From NCBI GenBank assembly GCA_038064415.1, contig JBBTTD010000003.1, positions 2,597 through 66,596 of the forward strand: a DNA stretch of 64,000 bases, in the 5' to 3' direction. The notes beneath the pieces were generated by a model. It ran no database searches. It had not been told where the DNA came from and was given only the letters and a program-made list of their open reading frames with translations. The stretch comes from Patescibacteria group bacterium (lineage in GTDB: Bacteria; Patescibacteriota; Minisyncoccia; Phycocordibacterales; PALSA-1337). Both the position numbers and the translations under genes were made by a program. This document shows positions 4,350-60,506 of this stretch, piece by piece. The first letter of the stretch is position 1. Every line of letters starts with the position of its first letter.

Positions 4350-5954
4350 ATGTTGTGTTATAATACGAAGATGAAATATAAAATAAATACAATGTTTCCA
4401 TATTTTATTATTTTTCTCTTTATTTTCACTCTTACCATTCCAATCCAGAATGCATCCGCCGGTTCGCTTACTCCTTCCTCCGCGCCAGCGGCCAATGGCT
4501 ATACTCTTTCTGGTATATACAATCGTCTAATAACGAATACCTCTGCCGTTTCTGGCTCTCATTCTTTTGCGCCTACCACTACCCCGCAGTCAACTTTCCC
4601 GACCTTGATTGATATTTATAATGCTATTCCAACAATATATCCAACTGATTTTTTGGCTAGCTCCACATATCTTGGTATTACTGGTTCAATTACGGTTAAA
4701 ACCGGCGATACCGTCGTCGCCTCAAGTTCTGCCCAAGGTACTTCGCTCGTCCTGACTGTTCCTCAAGGGTATTACAGTGGCGGGTCGTCAGTCACCGTCT
4801 CAACATCATCCGCAAGTTTTGTAGCTGGTAGTATTAAAAGCGGAGTTACGATTTTTGGCATTATCGGCACTCTTATTGAATCATTGGGCAATGCCGTTGT
4901 CGCCGATGTTTTCTCCGGTAAAACATTCAGCAATACCACAGATTCAAATATTACCGGTACTTTAAATCTTGCTTGCAATACCGCTACTTTCAACGGCACG
5001 GCAAATCTCGTCGCTACCGCATACGATGGCGCCGGCGATGGCTCAAATCGTTGGTGTGTTACTGATACTGGTGACGCGGTGGCCGGCGATCTTTTGTCTG
5101 GCAAAAAATCTTGGGTAGATGGCGTGGAAATTACCGGTTCAGTATCCGCCGGCTCCAATGTTACTGGCAGTAACGGCACGCTTGCCATGACGATTCCCGA
5201 TGGTTTGTATTCTGGTTCAAAAACAGCTACAGCCAACGATACCAATCTTGTGACCGGCAACATCAAAAGCGGAATCACGCTTTTTGGCGTTGCGGGCAAT
5301 TCCAATGTGGTTGATACTACTTCTGGTACGGCGGTAGCTGGCGATCTGGCCAACAATAAAATCGCCTTTTCCGCGGGCTCGCAGATTACCGGCACTATGT
5401 TTACCAACATGAAAAATCAGACAAAAGATGATTATGTGAATGGCGCGGGAACTACTGGAGAATATACAAGCGAAGAATCTACATGGTCGGCTGTTTCCGG
5501 CTCACCGTTCTCCGGATACGACGCCATTAATTATCTTGGAGCGACGGACTTGTATAGCGGCGCGGTCAAACAAGACGGAAGGACTGGTCTTTGGTGGTCG
5601 GATGTTATGGCTGTTGGCGCGACTGCTTCAACCACCACTAATGTTTTTACACTTTCAGCCGACGGCTCAAGACCAACTGGCGGTTTGGCTATCGGTTTTT
5701 GTGATGCTCTAAATAGTGCTAGTTTTGCTGGTTATACTGACTGGTATTTACCGACCCAGAAACAGCTCATGCAAGCATATATAGACGGTGCGTCAAATAA
5801 TTTATTGAATGCAGGATCAAATTCTTATTGGACATCCACAGAGGATTATAGTACAACGAATAATGCTTGGCGATCAGGTTTTAAATTTTCCGGCACTATT
5901 ATATCAAATACAAAGGTTACTACTACTGGCACTGTGCATTGCGTTCGTCCTTAA
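4350..5954 (+). CDS. Secreted Thr/Ser/Gly-rich fibre-like surface protein with C-terminal DUF1566/Fib_succ_major-like module
   Basis: Signal peptide; repetitive T/S/G-rich beta-rich sequence; C-terminal motif GYTDWYLPTQKQLMQAY...YWTST typical of DUF1566/Fibrobacter paralogous domain. Confidence 0.45.
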   Translation: MLCYNTKMKYKINTMFPYFIIFLFIFTLTIPIQNASAGSLTPSSAPAANGYTLSGIYNRLITNTSAVSGSHSFAPTTTPQSTFPTLIDIYNAIPTIYPTDFLASSTYLGITGSITVKTGDTVVASSSAQGTSLVLTVPQGYYSGGSSVTVSTSSASFVAGSIKSGVTIFGIIGTLIESLGNAVVADVFSGKTFSNTTDSNITGTLNLACNTATFNGTANLVATAYDGAGDGSNRWCVTDTGDAVAGDLLSGKKSWVDGVEITGSVSAGSNVTGSNGTLAMTIPDGLYSGSKTATANDTNLVTGNIKSGITLFGVAGNSNVVDTTSGTAVAGDLANNKIAFSAGSQITGTMFTNMKNQTKDDYVNGAGTTGEYTSEESTWSAVSGSPFSGYDAINYLGATDLYSGAVKQDGRTGLWWSDVMAVGATASTTTNVFTLSADGSRPTGGLAIGFCDALNSASFAGYTDWYLPTQKQLMQAYIDGASNNLLNAGSNSYWTSTEDYSTTNNAWRSGFKFSGTIISNTKVTTTGTVHCVRP

Positions 5955-5967
5955 GTGAGCGGATCTT

Positions 5968-7860
5968 ATGCAAAATATGTTCACAAAAAAATTTATTTCA
6001 GTAATATTGAATTTTGCGTGTATATCTGTATATCTTTTTTTGCTTGTTATTTTTAGCGCCAATTTTGTATATGCCTCAAGTACCGACGGTACCATAGACT
6101 CAACCAACCGCTACGCTTATATGGAAGCGGGAAGTTGGGTAGACTTGGGTAGCACGCAAGGCAATGTCCATGTTACCGATTCAGCGCTTTCGGGCTACGC
6201 GTGGAGTTCAGAATTTGGTTGGATTTCCTTGAATTGTTCAAATACCAGTTCATGTTCAAGTGGTGTTGATTATAAAGTCGCCAATGACAATGAAGGCGTC
6301 TTGTCTGGTTATTCATGGAGTGAGACGGCGGGTTGGATAGATTGGAAACCCACTAATGGCGGGGTAACGATTAATTCCTCCGGGATTTTCTCTGGAAGAG
6401 CGTGGGGAGATCAAGTTGGTTGGATCACTTTCAATTGTTCGGCGGATAGTTCTTGCGGGTCGGTTGATTATACAATTACGACTGATTGGCGACCATTGTC
6501 ATCTCGGTCCGTGGCCAGTCCGGTTACTGATTCAAGCACAGGATCCAATAGCAGTAGCGGCAGTAGGATGTTTTTACCGACGATTATTTCCATCCCAACG
6601 GAGATAGTTTCCAACATAATTGATGCTATTATTCCAGAATTTCTGAAGCCCAAAAAAGAACCAATCGTCAAAATTACCGATGAGATTCAGGTGTCAGATG
6701 TAACTCCGCTGGCTTTTAACGGAAAATGGAGACTATTGCCGATTCAGACTATAGGAGATTTCGTGTTCGCGCCTTTGCCACGGAGCATTCGTGCTTTGGC
6801 GGTAAAGTTTCCAAGTTTTGGTAAAACATTAAGTGAAGTTGGCGTTGTCCGTCTTTCTGATTTGGATAAATTGCGAAGCGCGACATTATCTTTGCCTGGA
6901 CTTACTGAAAGATCCGGTATTTCCGGAGCTTCATTGCGCACCGGTATATTCGCGTCTATGGCGGGAGTACCACTCGCAAAACTCTCTCCCTCTTTCAAAA
7001 AATCTTTACCTTCTGAAACGGTTTTTGCCAGGACGGCGGACGAGCTCATAGATCTGAATACTTCTATTCTGGTGAGCGATACTGGAGATGTCAATCAGAA
7101 AATCAATACTGAATCTAGGCAAACAATACGCCTAGCCATCAAACCGGAAAGTCCAGTGACATCCATCAAAGGATATTTGACTTTCCGAAAGAGGAATGCT
7201 TTGAGCAAAGAAGACGAATATTCAAATGACATGCTGGCTTCCGTCATATCCGCTTTGCCGGTGCTTGGGAAAAAATCAGACGCGCCGATAGAAGACAAAT
7301 TGGTTTTACTTTCATTTGATTACGGCGATTCTGACAAAGACGGTATCTGGACGGCGGATATAAATTCGCCGGTTGTGGCGGGAGAGTATGAGATTATGAC
7401 TATTATCGCTTATGTTGATCCCGAACTTGGTATGCGCCAAGTTAGACTTGTTACGGTGGTCGATCCGGAGGGATATGTTTATGAGAAGAACGGCTCAAAA
7501 GAGACTCGTATTCCAGATGCCGAGGTGTCTATATATGAGCTTAATAGCGATAGCGGTCAATATGAAATGTGGTCGGCCAGTACTTATCATCAAGAAAATC
7601 CTCAAACTACGGGCCTAAGTGGCACATATTCTTTCTTGGTACCACCGGGGACATATCGTATATTTGCCGTTGCTCCGGGTTATTCTCCATATGATGGCCA
7701 GCCATTTGAAGTTCAGATTGGAGGGGGAGTGCATAAGAACATTGAACTTATTCCAGAACATGGATGGATCAAAGCCCTGGATTGGAAGATTTTATTGATT
7801 ATCATAGTAGTGTTATTATTAGCTTACAATTTTTATCGCGATTATCGACGCGATAAGTAA
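5968..7860 (+). CDS. TM-anchored protein with N-terminal tandem 'GYAWSxxxGWIxF'-type repeats and C-terminal carboxypeptidase-regulatory-like (CarbopepD_reg) domain and terminal TM helix
   Basis: Repeats LSGYAWSSEFGWISLNCS / LSGYSWSETAGWIDWKPT / FSGRAWGDQVGWITFNCS; C-terminal SGTYSFLVPPGTYRIFAVAPGYSPYDGQPFEV; paralog of 44599..45459. Confidence 0.5.
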   Translation: MQNMFTKKFISVILNFACISVYLFLLVIFSANFVYASSTDGTIDSTNRYAYMEAGSWVDLGSTQGNVHVTDSALSGYAWSSEFGWISLNCSNTSSCSSGVDYKVANDNEGVLSGYSWSETAGWIDWKPTNGGVTINSSGIFSGRAWGDQVGWITFNCSADSSCGSVDYTITTDWRPLSSRSVASPVTDSSTGSNSSSGSRMFLPTIISIPTEIVSNIIDAIIPEFLKPKKEPIVKITDEIQVSDVTPLAFNGKWRLLPIQTIGDFVFAPLPRSIRALAVKFPSFGKTLSEVGVVRLSDLDKLRSATLSLPGLTERSGISGASLRTGIFASMAGVPLAKLSPSFKKSLPSETVFARTADELIDLNTSILVSDTGDVNQKINTESRQTIRLAIKPESPVTSIKGYLTFRKRNALSKEDEYSNDMLASVISALPVLGKKSDAPIEDKLVLLSFDYGDSDKDGIWTADINSPVVAGEYEIMTIIAYVDPELGMRQVRLVTVVDPEGYVYEKNGSKETRIPDAEVSIYELNSDSGQYEMWSASTYHQENPQTTGLSGTYSFLVPPGTYRIFAVAPGYSPYDGQPFEVQIGGGVHKNIELIPEHGWIKALDWKILLIIIVVLLLAYNFYRDYRRDK

Positions 7861-9257: not shown

Positions 9258-9271
9258 GATAAAGGAAAAGA

Positions 9272-9455
9272 AGCAACAAAAAGTACATGTGTTTTGATGT
9301 GCCTGCGGAACTCGCTTCTGAAATTACTAAATAAAAGGCTCAGGAATCACACAAAGCAAAGCTTTGGTGATTCCAACGCCATTCGCCTTTTATTAAGTAA
9401 TTTCTAGTCGCTCAGACAGTCCTCGGCAATCAAAACACATGTACTTTTTGTTGCT
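9272..9455 (+). repeat. Copy 1 of 125-nt structured repeat element (core 9302..9426) nested in a perfect 27-bp inverted repeat (9272..9298 / 9429..9455)
   Basis: Core begins CCTGCGGAACTC and ends CAGTCCTCGG; ~85-90% identical to cores at 38131..38255 and 47901..48025; lies between convergent genes. Confidence 0.8.
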
Positions 9456-9476
9456 CCTTAATTCTCCTTCTGTTTA

Positions 9477-19321: not shown

Positions 19322-19427
19322 AAACTCAGTCATGTGAATTTTTAATGAGTTATGTTACTTCGCCACATTATTTTTGTTGAGGACTCTGTATAACTCATTA
19401 AAAATTCATATGACTGAGTTTTTTTAG
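19322..19427 (+). terminator. Long hairpin terminator (32-bp arms, 1 mismatch, 36-nt loop) followed by T-run
   Basis: AAACTCAGTCATGTGAATTTTTAATGAGTTAT ... ATAACTCATTAAAAATTCATATGACTGAGTTT then TTTTTT. Confidence 0.45.
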
Positions 19428-35693: not shown

Positions 35694-36476
35694 ATGAATC
35701 CATGGATACAATTAAGCATTGATTACGCAAATCAAAAGAATTATCTCGATGATCTTTTTCAAGTGTACCCAACTATTCCTGATGGGATTAGAGATATTGA
35801 TACAACATTATGGAAAAAAACTGAAAAAGCGTTCAAGGATCGTAAAAATGACGAACTTGTAGAGAGTCTATTGCAACTTGATCTTTTTCCGATAAAAGAT
35901 TCATACGTTGCTTATCTTAAGAGAGATAAGAAAGCAATGCAAAGAAATCCAGCAACAATTTCTCGCTTAGCAGGTCGTTTATATGGAATGGGATTGACTA
36001 GACTTTTTGAGCGTTGCTCCGAACCAAAAGAGACGAATCGTCAGATTGGCCCATTATTCCGTCGCTGGTTAAATAGAAAATCATTAGGCGTTGAGTCTTT
36101 AAAAGTAGAGCAATTTTTAGCCACGAAAGACAATGCAATTCTTGATGCTGGTGATATTGAAATGATGGGTTTTGCAAGAGAATATCTTAATTACAAACAT
36201 GGTAAAGGGCTAGATCTAGTTGCTAGATTTAATAATAAGTATGTTATTGCAGAAGCAAAATTTCTTACTGATTTTGGTGGACATCAAAATGCTCAGTTTA
36301 ATGACGCTATATCTACAATAAAAGCAAAGAATGTAAACGCTATTAAAGTCGCTATCTTAGATGGTGTTCTTTATATAAAAGGTAATAACAAAATGTATCG
36401 AGATATTACTACAACCCTGAAAAAAGAAAATATTATGAGTAGCCTTGTTCTTCGTGAATTTCTTTATCAAATATAA
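35694..36476 (+). CDS. Candidate Type II restriction endonuclease (PD-(D/E)XK) of an R-M pair
   Basis: GLDLVARFNNKYVIAEAKF = D...ExK catalytic motif; 5 bp upstream of a DNA methyltransferase; very AT-rich. Confidence 0.45.
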   Translation: MNPWIQLSIDYANQKNYLDDLFQVYPTIPDGIRDIDTTLWKKTEKAFKDRKNDELVESLLQLDLFPIKDSYVAYLKRDKKAMQRNPATISRLAGRLYGMGLTRLFERCSEPKETNRQIGPLFRRWLNRKSLGVESLKVEQFLATKDNAILDAGDIEMMGFAREYLNYKHGKGLDLVARFNNKYVIAEAKFLTDFGGHQNAQFNDAISTIKAKNVNAIKVAILDGVLYIKGNNKMYRDITTTLKKENIMSSLVLREFLYQI

Positions 36477-36481
36477 TTTAT

Positions 36482-47866: not shown

Positions 47867-48059
47867 TGTTTTTGAACCTTGTGGGTATTATTTTTTAGTA
47901 CCTGCGGAACTCGCTTCTTAAATTGCTAAGTAAAATGCTCAGGAATTACTCAAATCTTCGACTTGGTAATTCCAACGCCATTCGCATTTTACTAAGCAAT
48001 TTACAGTCGCTCAGATAGTCCTCGGTACTAAAAAATAATACCCACAAGGTTCAAAAACA
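47867..48059 (+). repeat. Copy 3 of 125-nt structured repeat element (core 47901..48025) nested in a perfect 34-bp inverted repeat
   Basis: TGTTTTTGAACCTTGTGGGTATTATTTTTTAGTA ... TACTAAAAAATAATACCCACAAGGTTCAAAAACA flank the conserved core. Confidence 0.8.
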
Positions 48060-50276: not shown

Positions 50277-53200
50277 CTATAGTCCTTTGACTCTTTCAAT
50301 CACAAATCCCTTTTCACCATTTCTAGTATTTATCGTTGCTTTAATGGCCAGACAACTATCTGGCATAATCAGCGCGCGAAATTCTCTGTAGACTCGAGGG
50401 AATACTACTGCTTCCGAAGAACCGGAAAAATCAGCTATGGTAATAAAAGCCATAGTTTCGTTATTTTTTGTTTGTACCAAACGGACTTCGTTTATGATTC
50501 CAGCTAATATGATTGATGCACCATCTTTCAGAGTCTCAAATGCTTTTTTTATATTTATGCCATTCTTGTCAATAATTGAACGATATTTTTCAAGTGGATG
50601 TCCAGAAATGTAGAGACCTAGAAGTTCTTTTTCCCAAGTTAATTTGTCGCGCATTTCTGCTAAAGGCGCGGGATTTAGACGCAAAGTCGGGACGCTAGAA
50701 GTGTCGGTCATTGTTCCAAAAAGGGAATTCTGGTCAGTGTGTTGATTGTTGCTTTCTTTATTATATCCAAGCAAAAGTTCAGTATTGGCAAGCATGACTC
50801 CACGATCTTCACCAAAACAATCCATAGCCCCCGCTTTAATTAACGACTCAAGAGATTTTTTGTTTAGATTTTTGTCTTTAATGCGATCAAGAAAATTTGC
50901 CAGTGAAGAGAATTTACCATTCTTTTTGCGTTCCTCAATAATAGCAGTTGATATTCCTTGCCCAAAGTTCTTAATAGTTACAAGTCCAAAGCGGATACGG
51001 TAATGATTATTGATTGGAGCAAGCGCATTTCCGCCTTGCTCATCTTTTATTACGGTAAACTGACTAAAACTCTCATTGATGTCTGGTGGCAGGACCGGAA
51101 TCCCAATACGCTTGCATTCAGCAATAGTCTCCGCTACTTTTTCCGTATCACCTTGTTCAGAAGTCAAAACGGCTGATAAGTATATTTCTGGAAAATGCGC
51201 TTTCAGATATGCGGTTATATAGGCGACACGACCATACGATACCGAGTGTGCTTTGTTAAATCCATAAGCCGCGAACGGCTCAATCCATCTCCAGATTTCT
51301 TTGGCTTTTTTCTCAGACCATTTACTGTGATTGATACAACCCTGGATAAATTTTTCCTTTTGTAGTCCCATTTCCTTTGGAATCTTCTTACCGACCGCTT
51401 TGCGGAATTTGTCCACCTCAATCCAGCTGTATCCAGCCAGATCATGCGCCATGATTAAAAGATCATCCTGATAAACTAGCACGCCATAAGTTTTTTTAAG
51501 AATTTTTTCCAGCGCAGGGTCAAGATATTTGATTTTTTTCTGATCATGTTTTCTTTTGATATATTCAGGGATAAATTGAATTGGTCCGGGTCGATAAAGT
51601 GCCACCATGGCGTTGATGTCATGAATCGTGCTGGGCTTCAAGTCTTTCAGGAATCGGGTCATACCATCTCCGTTTAATTGAAAGAGGTCAGCGGTTTCTC
51701 CGCGCGCCAACATTTCAAAAGTTTTCTTGTCATTTACAGGAATAGTTTCTGTGTCAATTAGAACGTCATCAATTTTCTTGATCCTCGCGACGGTATCGGC
51801 AATTATCGTCAGATTTTTCAAACCTAGAAAATCAAACTTCAACAGTCCGGCTTCCTCAATGGAATACATATCATATTGAGTGATGATTTTACCTTCTCCT
51901 TTGGGATCAAATTGCAGCGGTGTATAGTCGGTAAGCGCACTTGGCGATATGACTACGCCCGCGGCGTGCACTCCAATGTGACGAGCGCAACCTTCAATTT
52001 TTTTTGCCATATCAATGATTCGACGAGTATTTGGTTCTTCTTTGTACGCGGATTTCAATTCTGGAGTTTCATTCAAGGCGCGATCAATTGTCATTGGAAA
52101 ACCTTGCGAACCAATCGGGATCAGTTTGGAAATTCGGTCACCGATTTCATAAGGGAATTCCATAGCGCGAGCAACATCACGGACTGAACCACGCGCCGCC
52201 ATAGTTCCGAATGTACCGATTTGGGCGACTCTATCTGCGCCATATTTTTTGCGGACATAATCAATAACCTCGTCTCTACGATCATCGGCGAAATCCATGT
52301 CAATATCCGGAGGGGATGGACGGTCTGGATTCAAGAATCGCTCAAATGGGATTTCATATTCAATTGGATTGATATTCGTAATCCCAGCTAAATATGTAAC
52401 CATTGATCCGGAGACCGACCCTCTAATATTTGAGAGAATTTTATTTTCTCGAGCAAAACGAAGCATGTCTGCTACCACCAAAAAATACGGGGCATATCCT
52501 TTGTCTCTGATCACTTTGAGTTCATATTCGGCGCGTTTAACAATTTCTTCGGTTTTTTTTACATCTCGTTGGACAAATCCTTCAAAAACTATATGCCTAA
52601 GTTCATCGTCTGGCTTGCGACCACTCTCAATCGTCAGGTCGGGGAAGACCCATTTTCCTAAAATCAACTCAAGGTTGCATTGCTCAACGATTTTGGTTGT
52701 GTTTTCCAAAGCATCGGGCGAATCCCTGAATAATTCTTCTGCTCGTTCTGATGAGATGAATGAGAAGTCGTCTTCATCGCTGTCGGAAATTTTATCCGAT
52801 GCATCGCTATGGGAATTGACACGCACCAATGTTTCTCTAGCGAGACGATCGTCGGGTTTTATGTAATAAACATCATGAGCGGCCATTATGGGAATTTTCT
52901 GACTTTTAGCGAATTGAATCAATGTCTTCATGTTGGCTTCATGGCCATCAATTTCTGGGTGGTGTGTGATTTCTATGAACAGACGCGGATAAAAATGAAG
53001 GTCAGGCCTTGGGTGATTTGGTGTTAAGGCCTGACCTTCATTTTTCTGACCTTGCTGAAAAACTTTTTTATAAAATTCCGCAACCTCTTTCGCCTTGTCC
53101 TGATTCCTACTTTTTAGCGATTGAGCGATTTCACCTGAAAATGAAGGCGAAATGGCAACCAATCCCTCATTATATTTTTCCAAAAGCTCGCGATCTATTC

Positions 53201-54288: not shown

Positions 54289-54454
54289 TGAAAAACTGGC
54301 GGCAACAATCGGAATGATTGCTTAGATCCGCCAGTAAGACTCCTTAACAAACCAACTAATAGGTTGTCTAGGTTGCAGCCATAGACACGCCTCATTTTTA
54401 GCGCCCCCACAGTTATTGTTTGTTCTAAGGTTATTTTAGCACAAGTTTTGTCTA

Positions 54455-54496
54455 GATCCGTACCCCAGAAAGTGGACACTTTATGGGGTACGGATC
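54455..54496. repeat. Near-palindromic hairpin motif, copy A (13-bp stem, 16-nt loop)
   Basis: GATCCGTACCCCA-GAAAGTGGACACTTTA-TGGGGTACGGATC; a second copy at 55524..55555. Confidence 0.6.
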
Positions 54497-54658
54497 AAGA
54501 TATAGACAATCAAGAGTTTAAGCCAAGGTCTTGACGGATGTGATAGATATGGTATACTACCGCTAGATACCTCTCCCCACGTATCTAGACCGATGTAACG
54601 CACTGCCGTCTGAAACGGATAGCGCGGGCACGAAGCCCTTCGGCCTCTTGAATGGGGA

Positions 54659-60472: not shown

Positions 60473-60473
60473 A

Positions 60474-60506
60474 AAGGCCGAATAGAACGTGTTCTATTCG
60501 GCCTTT
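60474..60506. terminator. Bidirectional terminator (14-bp perfect stem)
   Basis: AAGGCCGAATAGAAC-GTG-TTCTATTCGGCCTT between convergent genes. Confidence 0.6.

Follow-up and report, generated by a model that had tools for sequence, protein, structure and literature searches.

Three intergenic hairpins from a groundwater Parcubacterium belong to a new repeat family, probably a small non-autonomous palindromic mobile element

What kind of sequence places the same folded, non-coding module in three intergenic regions of one bacterium, each time inside a long and almost perfect inverted repeat? The question is raised by a stretch of 64,000 nucleotides (the window), which corresponds to positions 2597-66596 of contig Hain_H41_01um_R3_159 (110.6 kb, ENA ERZ1292624) from Hainich groundwater. 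An earlier note on this DNA had listed several candidate explanations, among them a small non-autonomous mobile element, a retron-like structure and a family of structured RNAs. In this study we find that the hairpins are a real, well-defined new repeat family. We favour the first of these candidates, since the family is multi-copy, non-coding and polymorphic between sister strains: with a probability of roughly 60% we regard it as a new small mobile element, palindromic and non-autonomous, of the same kind as REPIN, ERIC or Correia sequences, and not as a new RNA machine. This reading rests on six members from one species.

The window and contig L090 come from strain H41, contigs L097 and L098 from the sister strain H51 (Hain_H51 contigs; NCBI bin GCA_964361975.1), which shares ~100% identity with H41 across most coding sequence. 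Contigs L093 and L100 belong to genus-level relatives, whose proteins are 78-85% identical. As the next-closest gpmI protein is 78% and the next-closest hisS protein 85% identical, the species appears isolated in current databases; the nearest other gpmI proteins are those of Parcubacteria/Paceibacterota. Our census of the family covers ~105 kb of the host species. Differences between the two strains were also seen away from the hairpins. A gene for a Tsp45I-like restriction enzyme (35694-36476) and one for an N6/N4 DNA methyltransferase (36482-37651) lie directly upstream of rnpB in H41; this pair (window 35694-37651) is missing in the near-identical sister strain, where a ribonucleotide reductase gene abuts rnpB (L012). 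At ~5400-6000 of the window (L001 6394-6990) the sister strains are only 57-95% identical within identical surroundings, over a patch that straddles the junction of two putative surface-protein genes. This patch is consistent with recombination imports or with diversifying selection.

The three cores of 125 nt described before do exist on the plus strand, at 9302-9426 (c1), 38141-38265 (c2) and 47901-48025 (c3). For the second copy the position given earlier, 38131-38255, had to be shifted by 10 nt, and the arms move along with the core. The cores start with CCTGCGGAACTC and end with CAGTCCTCGG, or with TAGTCCTCGG in the third copy, and their mean column identity is 93%. The near-perfect inverted repeats of 26-34 bp around all three were confirmed. 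They were recovered at 9268-9298/9429-9459 for c1 (31 nt, 97%, containing the perfect 27 bp reported earlier), at 38112-38142/38264-38294 for c2 (31 nt, 94%) and at 47867-47902/48024-48059 for c3 (36 nt, 100%). The whole hairpin of c1, arms and core together, occupies 9268..9459 on the plus strand in the gap between a SWIB gene (stop 9257) and a VanY gene (stop 9477, minus strand). Its left arm, the 5' half of the outer stem P1 (9268..9301), is complementary to 9427-9459 at 32 of 34 positions and is followed by a conserved 5' junction strand, CCTGCGGAACTCGCTTCT (9302..9319), which is mostly unpaired and occurs in 6/6 members, including the divergent copy c5. The inner module (9320..9404) consists of the stem P2 (9320-9339 paired with 9385-9404), the hairpin P3 (9343-9374) and the conserved loop AACGCCATTC (9375-9384). 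It is closed by the 3' junction strand TAGTCGCTCAGACAGTCCTCGG (9405..9426), conserved in the family alignments and retained in c5, and by the right arm, the 3' half of P1 (9427..9459). The second element extends over 38112..38294 on the plus strand, with arms at 38112-38140 and 38266-38294 that are complementary at 27/29 positions; it lies 50 nt past rnpB and past rnpB's own small terminator hairpin, with murJ downstream. The third (47867..48059, plus strand) has fully complementary arms (34/34) at 47867-47900 and 48026-48059 and entirely fills the gap between the stop of a PAP2/VTT gene (47866) and that of gpmI (48062, minus strand).

The note had suggested looking for further copies, and three were found beyond the window, each with long arms. 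We used a covariance model of the core (R1), a pattern scan of metagenome contigs and contig look-ups anchored on proteins. The ~105 kb of the species contain six distinct members, which occupy five loci. Besides c1-c3 of the window these are c4 in L090 (3591-3715, minus strand, 144.9 bits), c4' in L097/L098 (9802-9926, plus strand, 135.9 bits) and the divergent c5 in L097 (17971-18071, 54.8 bits). Scores for R1 range from 54.8 to 153.8 bits across the six (E 1e-13 to 1e-43). Extrapolated from six members in one species, the density is ~1 copy per 20 kb. Units measure 154-193 bp and have no coding capacity, only a short non-conserved ORF fragment being seen by eye. Their cores diverge by 6-17% among each other and by 35-39% from c5.

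Further searches gave no copy outside this species. The metagenome contigs scanned with a 25-base pattern gave one match, c4 itself; ~105 kb from genus-level relatives held no family copy, and neither did positions 66.6-74.9 kb of the contig. A blastn search with the whole unit against phage and plasmid collections returned no match, three patterns run on viral contigs gave one chance match only, in a GC-rich coding region, and among 185,579 species genomes scanned with AACGCCATTCN{17,32}AGTCGCTCA the 74 matches are about what we estimate for chance, none being recognised by the covariance model. The statement that the element belongs to no nameable family holds for Rfam 15, in which the whole window matched only RNase P (37721-38061) and three tRNAs at the gathering threshold; the c1 region at E <= 10 gave only spurious long-hairpin matches far below threshold. 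Other long hairpins in the window, at 19322-19421, 52991-53045, 54451-54500 and 60473-60506, were considered as 'empty' arms or degenerate copies and proved unrelated to the family. The first of these, downstream of a DEAD-box helicase gene, combines 32-nt arms (97% complementary) with a loop of 36 nt, and a T-run follows; its sequence shows no relation to the family, and its 18 bits against R1 are a generic hairpin score. The other three have unusually long stems of 16-24 bp with loops of 2-15 nt, and those at 52991-53045 and 60473-60506, which have flanking A/T runs, are probably ordinary bidirectional terminators of the host genome.

With six members in hand the anatomy of the family can be described from the outside in: P1 arms of 26-34 bp, junction strands, P2, and a three-way region with the loop AACGCCATTC and P3. 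Compared with shuffled sequences, the three window cores fold with z = -5.2 to -6.9 and whole units with z of about -14 to -15 (two units; c1 z = -14.3). The calculated RNA fold of whole units amounts to about -80 to -99 kcal/mol (-91 to -99 kcal/mol for c1), and as single-stranded DNA the units likewise form very stable hairpins. The compensatory changes that had been described for two inner helices are real: among the six members 15/43 pairs have changed on both sides, 12/21 modelled pairs in P2 (20 bp) and 3/14 in P3. In the six-member alignment, which was fitted to the model and so favours structure somewhat, paired cells make up 96.3% as against 87.2 ± 1.2% in shuffles (0/500), and slid registers yield at most 5 double-changed pairs versus the 15 of the true register. 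The two junction strands, CCTGCGGAACTCGCTTC(T) and (T)AGTCGCTCARAYAGTCCTCGG, are strongly conserved to almost invariant and mostly unpaired; as a pair they may also be written CCTGCGGAACTCGCTTC / AGTCGCTCARACAGTCCTCGG. The P1 arms are 87-100% complementary inside each copy and 45-81% identical across copies, from which we infer that the outer stem requires pairing of its arms, not a particular sequence. In c5 the arms, the junction strands and the base of P2 are retained and the apical module is an unrelated hairpin. What is essential is therefore the stem formed by the arms, together with the subterminal junction; the tip is not. Inspection of the element by eye for a hammerhead core, for a kink-turn and for the R/L boxes of attC sites gave no convincing match.

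Such a structure might be that of a functional RNA. In that case each copy would be transcribed, RNase III would cut the long stem or the stem would protect the RNA, and the copies would be duplicates under selection whose core, released or presented, binds a protein or another RNA through the junction strands and the AACGCCAUUC loop. Several of the above findings agree with this proposal: whole units fold very stably, P2 and P3 covary while the arms stay paired, and the most conserved parts are unpaired segments. The minus strand moreover folds 8-10 kcal/mol better than the plus strand (plus being the core strand in the window) in 6/6 copies, and five A.C oppositions of the plus strand become G.U on the minus strand as compared with 1-2 in the reverse case, a wobble asymmetry that is statistically not decisive. 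We nevertheless consider an RNA family unlikely. The apical module with its conserved loop is dispensable in c5, Rfam contains no match, and no promoter-like site was seen in or beside c1 and c3. Orientation is inconsistent as well, for whichever strand is chosen one of the six copies is antisense to both of its neighbours. No known RNA gene disperses as exact units of 155-195 bp to unrelated intergenic sites without a mobility mechanism.

The arms had been thought unrelated between loci, and this view has to be given up: in an alignment anchored at the core, the left arms of c1-c4 reach a summed pair score of 82 versus 43.8 ± 9.4 for shuffled arms (0/2000; p < 0.0005), a similarity that is significant only when anchored and not when end gaps are free. 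The arms of c4 and c5 are identical at 21/26 positions (81%) and their cores merely at 61%; arm identity is 65% between c1 and c2 and 61% between c1 and c4'. By eye, every copy has a T-run and a semi-conserved G-N-A-Y-A-T-K block ahead of its core. Two orthologous sites were compared in relatives. L093 keeps the gene order dnaE-gpmI-PAP2-glutaredoxin with only 7 nt between the convergent stops of gpmI and PAP2, as against the 193 nt of c3, and L100 keeps the divergent pair of a PKD gene and hisS, where the conserved motifs AAAAAGTCAAG and TGCTACAAT are separated by a spacer of 36 nt that does not hold the element. Neither site has a palindrome. Arms that are homologous across copies, together with relatives that have no palindrome, mean that the unit is the whole hairpin and that the arms are neither pre-existing targets nor locus-specific. 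Thus the arms belong to the element and travel with it.

These data bear directly on the idea of a smaller unit, in which the 125-nt core enters the centre of pre-existing long palindromic terminators, or gives rise to an inverted duplication of local sequence on insertion, so that the arms are locus-specific. Long hairpin terminators, in which tiny loops cap stems of 16-20 bp, do occur in the host genome, and the stem base of c1, CAACAAAAA/TTTTTGTTG, resembles the base of the H51 terminator at the same site, AACAAAAAC/GTTTTTGTTG. But the homology of the arms between loci contradicts this idea, as does the lack of a palindrome at the gpmI/PAP2 and hisS sites of relatives, and in the promoter spacer that holds c4 and c4' one would not expect a terminator. 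Nor do the arms match anything else in the available sequence beyond chance 8-14-mers, which also rules them out as 'guides' or copies of other genomic sequence. Their origin as inverted duplicates of the target was rejected on the spacer of L100, which has no similarity to either allele of the hisS locus. A core that targets or creates locus-specific palindromic terminators, as the earlier note had proposed, is therefore already largely refuted, and we hold it to be highly improbable.

The copies are mosaic in their make-up. As judged by eye, one outer-arm type is common to c1 and c2 and another to c3, c4 and c5, the tip variant CAAGTC-TTC-GACTTG is common to c3 and c4', and an inner-arm type to c1 and c4'. 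This mosaicism of arm, core and tip suggests recombination among copies. Arm mismatches number 0-4 per arm and are mostly transitions. With so few mismatches inside copies and large divergence between them, the copies seem to have inserted recently, from several source lineages that had already diverged.

Where the units have settled depends little on the type of intergenic DNA. The terminator-like context noted earlier stands for the window, with c1 and c3 between convergent genes and c2 after rnpB (37721-38061), and fails for the copies outside it: c4 and c4' sit where the promoters of a PKD-repeat gene and of hisS diverge, in the spacer, and c5, upstream of a tRNA with a tandem-repeat region, has a 96-aa gene on its other side. 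The family thus enters intergenic DNA of any type, and the neighbours of all six copies are housekeeping genes. Simple scans with terminator and promoter consensus sequences found neither a stem plus T-run nor a promoter-like site at c1 and c3. An intrinsic terminator is marked by a short GC-rich stem-loop at the 3' end of a gene with a T-run behind it, and the family does not have this form. The surroundings of c4, c4' and c5 have features of their own. hisS is apparently leaderless, its extended -10 box TGCTACAAT ending 7 nt before the ATG; this box is conserved in the relative with 85% hisS identity (L090 3741-3765; L097 9975-10003; L100 9985-10003), and the opposite flank of the spacer (CTTGACTTTTT, minus strand) resembles the -35 box of the divergent gene. 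Beside c4 in H41 (L090 3510-3560) lies an extra segment of ~49 nt with its own small inverted repeat, bounded by the direct repeat AGTCAAGA, possibly a second kind of tiny insertion. At L097 17612-17935 (also the end of L098) a minus-strand tRNA gene precedes a ~73-nt tandem repeat of which the tRNA's first 15 nt are a part; this repeat adjoins c5 and is interrupted by an assembly gap, and several assemblies break there.

Near-identical strains differ in the presence, variant and orientation of the element. Of four loci that can be compared between H41 and H51, with coding flanks ~100% identical, two differ; c2 and c3 have the same sequence in both strains. At locus 1, c1 of H41 sits where H51 has an ordinary terminator: the SWIB-VanY spacer of H51 is without c1 and consists of an unrelated 126 nt with a 14-bp terminator. 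Identity of the flanks is 100% up to a few bases from either stop, and the final codons of the two genes differ by synonymous changes. In the hisS spacer the H41 element is c4 (minus strand) and the H51 element c4' (plus strand), and arms and filler differ; an inversion of the core between its arms was rejected as the source of the opposite orientation because the arms differ. The adjacent filler differs at both polymorphic loci, and neither is a clean insertion. By eye no target-site duplication is recognisable at any of the six copies, where no clean empty site defines the junctions. An empty c5 site was not found either, four further contigs from four sequencing runs all carrying the same c5 sequence. 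Short-read contigs from several runs end in arms or at the core apex, as expected for a repeated palindrome.

The same differences could be explained without transposition, by import of a divergent allele through homologous recombination, and this weakens the mobile reading; so do the lack of a recognisable target-site duplication, the outermost termini, which are not conserved among copies, and the negative searches of ~105 kb from genus-level relatives and of the 185,579 species genomes. Taken further, the hairpins might be cis-acting parts of the host, such as bidirectional terminators, stabilisers of mRNA 3' ends or attenuators, which are spread by recombination between strains and whose strain differences are imported intergenic alleles. 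It fits this proposal that c1 and c3 lie exactly between convergent genes, c3 filling the whole gap, and that the alternative allele at locus 1 bears an ordinary terminator. Diverged filler and synonymous changes at gene ends are part of the polymorphic segments, and further patches in which the two strains diverge are evidence that recombination imports do occur. However, recombination between strains cannot put homologous units at six unrelated loci, and c2, c4, c4' and c5 are in positions that need no terminator. At c1 and c3, moreover, the terminator scan finds no stem with a T-run, and both recombination end points at locus 1 would need to lie within ~10 nt of the stop codons. Like an RNA family, host hairpins do not account for exact units dispersed to unrelated sites, and we think of them as an improbable explanation.

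It also speaks against the mobile reading that the called genes (Pfam) of the ~105 kb examined include no transposase, integrase/recombinase, reverse transcriptase or HUH enzyme, and that none was found among ORFs of at least 110 aa in window 19-36.5 kb. A gene for a RAYT (REP-associated tyrosine) transposase (Y1 transposase, PF01797) was not seen either among the called genes and ORFs examined in the ~105 kb. The element is thus non-autonomous relative to all genes examined, and the retron-like candidate finds no support, there being neither a reverse transcriptase nor a recombinase among the genes and ORFs scanned. With conservation in two non-complementary subterminal strands and a free terminal stem, we infer that the element is recognised by its shape and by the sequence of the bubble, probably as a folded single strand. 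The recogniser would be a protein whose gene lies elsewhere in the genome and which reads the folded shape and the subterminal junction motifs, much as has been proposed for the REP-associated transposase acting on REPs and REPINs; it would then move or copy the element in trans. Once inserted, a hairpin of ~190 nt probably affects the transcripts of its neighbours as a by-product, be it as a terminator, a stabiliser or an RNase III site. A bolder version is conceivable, and to us doubtful: the family could be an undescribed class of CPR element, a hairpin recognised by shape, sequence-specific only in its two unpaired bubble strands and with a free, covarying stem of 26-34 bp, that moves as a folded single strand (DNA or RNA) by means of an unknown enzyme or doubles as a trans-acting small RNA released by RNase III.

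Genomes of CPR/Patescibacteria are tiny and gene-dense, and the family shows a Parcubacterium with an active or recently active palindromic repeat. In our literature search miniature elements were nowhere combined with CPR/Patescibacteria, apart from an unrelated preprint. The hairpin reshapes intergenic regions, in that it takes the site of a terminator, sits in a promoter spacer and breaks assemblies. As it differs between otherwise identical strains, it could be used to tell strains apart along the Hainich groundwater series. The inversion of the usual conservation, with a conserved bubble and a free stem, could hint at a structure-specific recombinase or an RNA-binding protein, enzymes that are uncharted in CPR. 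If the family is merely a local relative of REPINs or ERICs, it is a useful annotation and no surprise.

How, then, does the family compare with systems already described? In size and copy number it resembles MITEs (below ~600 bp, non-coding, several dispersed copies), and insertion polymorphism between close relatives was found too, with neither locus a clean insertion. Each copy ends in an inverted repeat of 26-34 bp; these repeats are 45-81% identical between copies and their outermost bases are not conserved, whereas classical miniature elements driven by a transposase have conserved outermost termini. A retron ncRNA is likewise a structured core closed by a pair of inverted repeats, but its a1/a2 repeats are short and it is encoded beside its reverse transcriptase; here no reverse transcriptase lies near any of the six copies, and the family is multi-copy and dispersed. 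The attC sites of integrons are also imperfect palindromes and are recognised as folded single strands, in which structure and a few unpaired bases outweigh the sequence of the stem. They have conserved R/L boxes at the stem base and occur in tandem cassette arrays with an adjacent integrase; in our family there are no R/L boxes (arms inspected by eye), no cassette array and no integrase among the called genes and ORFs scanned. ERIC/IRU sequences of enterobacteria and Correia/NEMIS elements of Neisseria are intergenic imperfect palindromes of 100-170 bp, often co-transcribed with their neighbours; their RNA folds into long hairpins, which RNase III or RNase E can cleave, and they may replace or create terminators and promoters. 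Being an intergenic imperfect palindrome that is polymorphic between strains, our family is similar to both. The 26-bp terminal repeats of Correia elements are conserved and come with a TA duplication, and ERIC copies can be aligned over their full length. Our family lacks conserved termini and shows no duplication, its sequence is unrelated, and it resides in a CPR bacterium whose genome is very small.

REPINs, finally, come closest in kind: they are REP doublets that form hairpins from inverted repeats, in ssDNA or mRNA, with compensatory changes, and their mobilisation in trans by RAYT has been proposed (PMC3116915). Sequence similarity to them is absent, and no RAYT/Y1 gene was seen in the ~105 kb examined. 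A REPIN conserves its flanking REPs and varies the spacer, whereas the family described here varies its outer arms and conserves two non-complementary junction strands; these strands are only partly complementary, and the copies do not have the REP-type architecture of two inverted conserved REPs, each itself an imperfect palindrome, around a variable spacer. What both share is a short, non-coding, extragenic inverted repeat, dispersed in multiple copies and folding into one long hairpin with compensatory changes, for which the mover protein is proposed to be encoded elsewhere.
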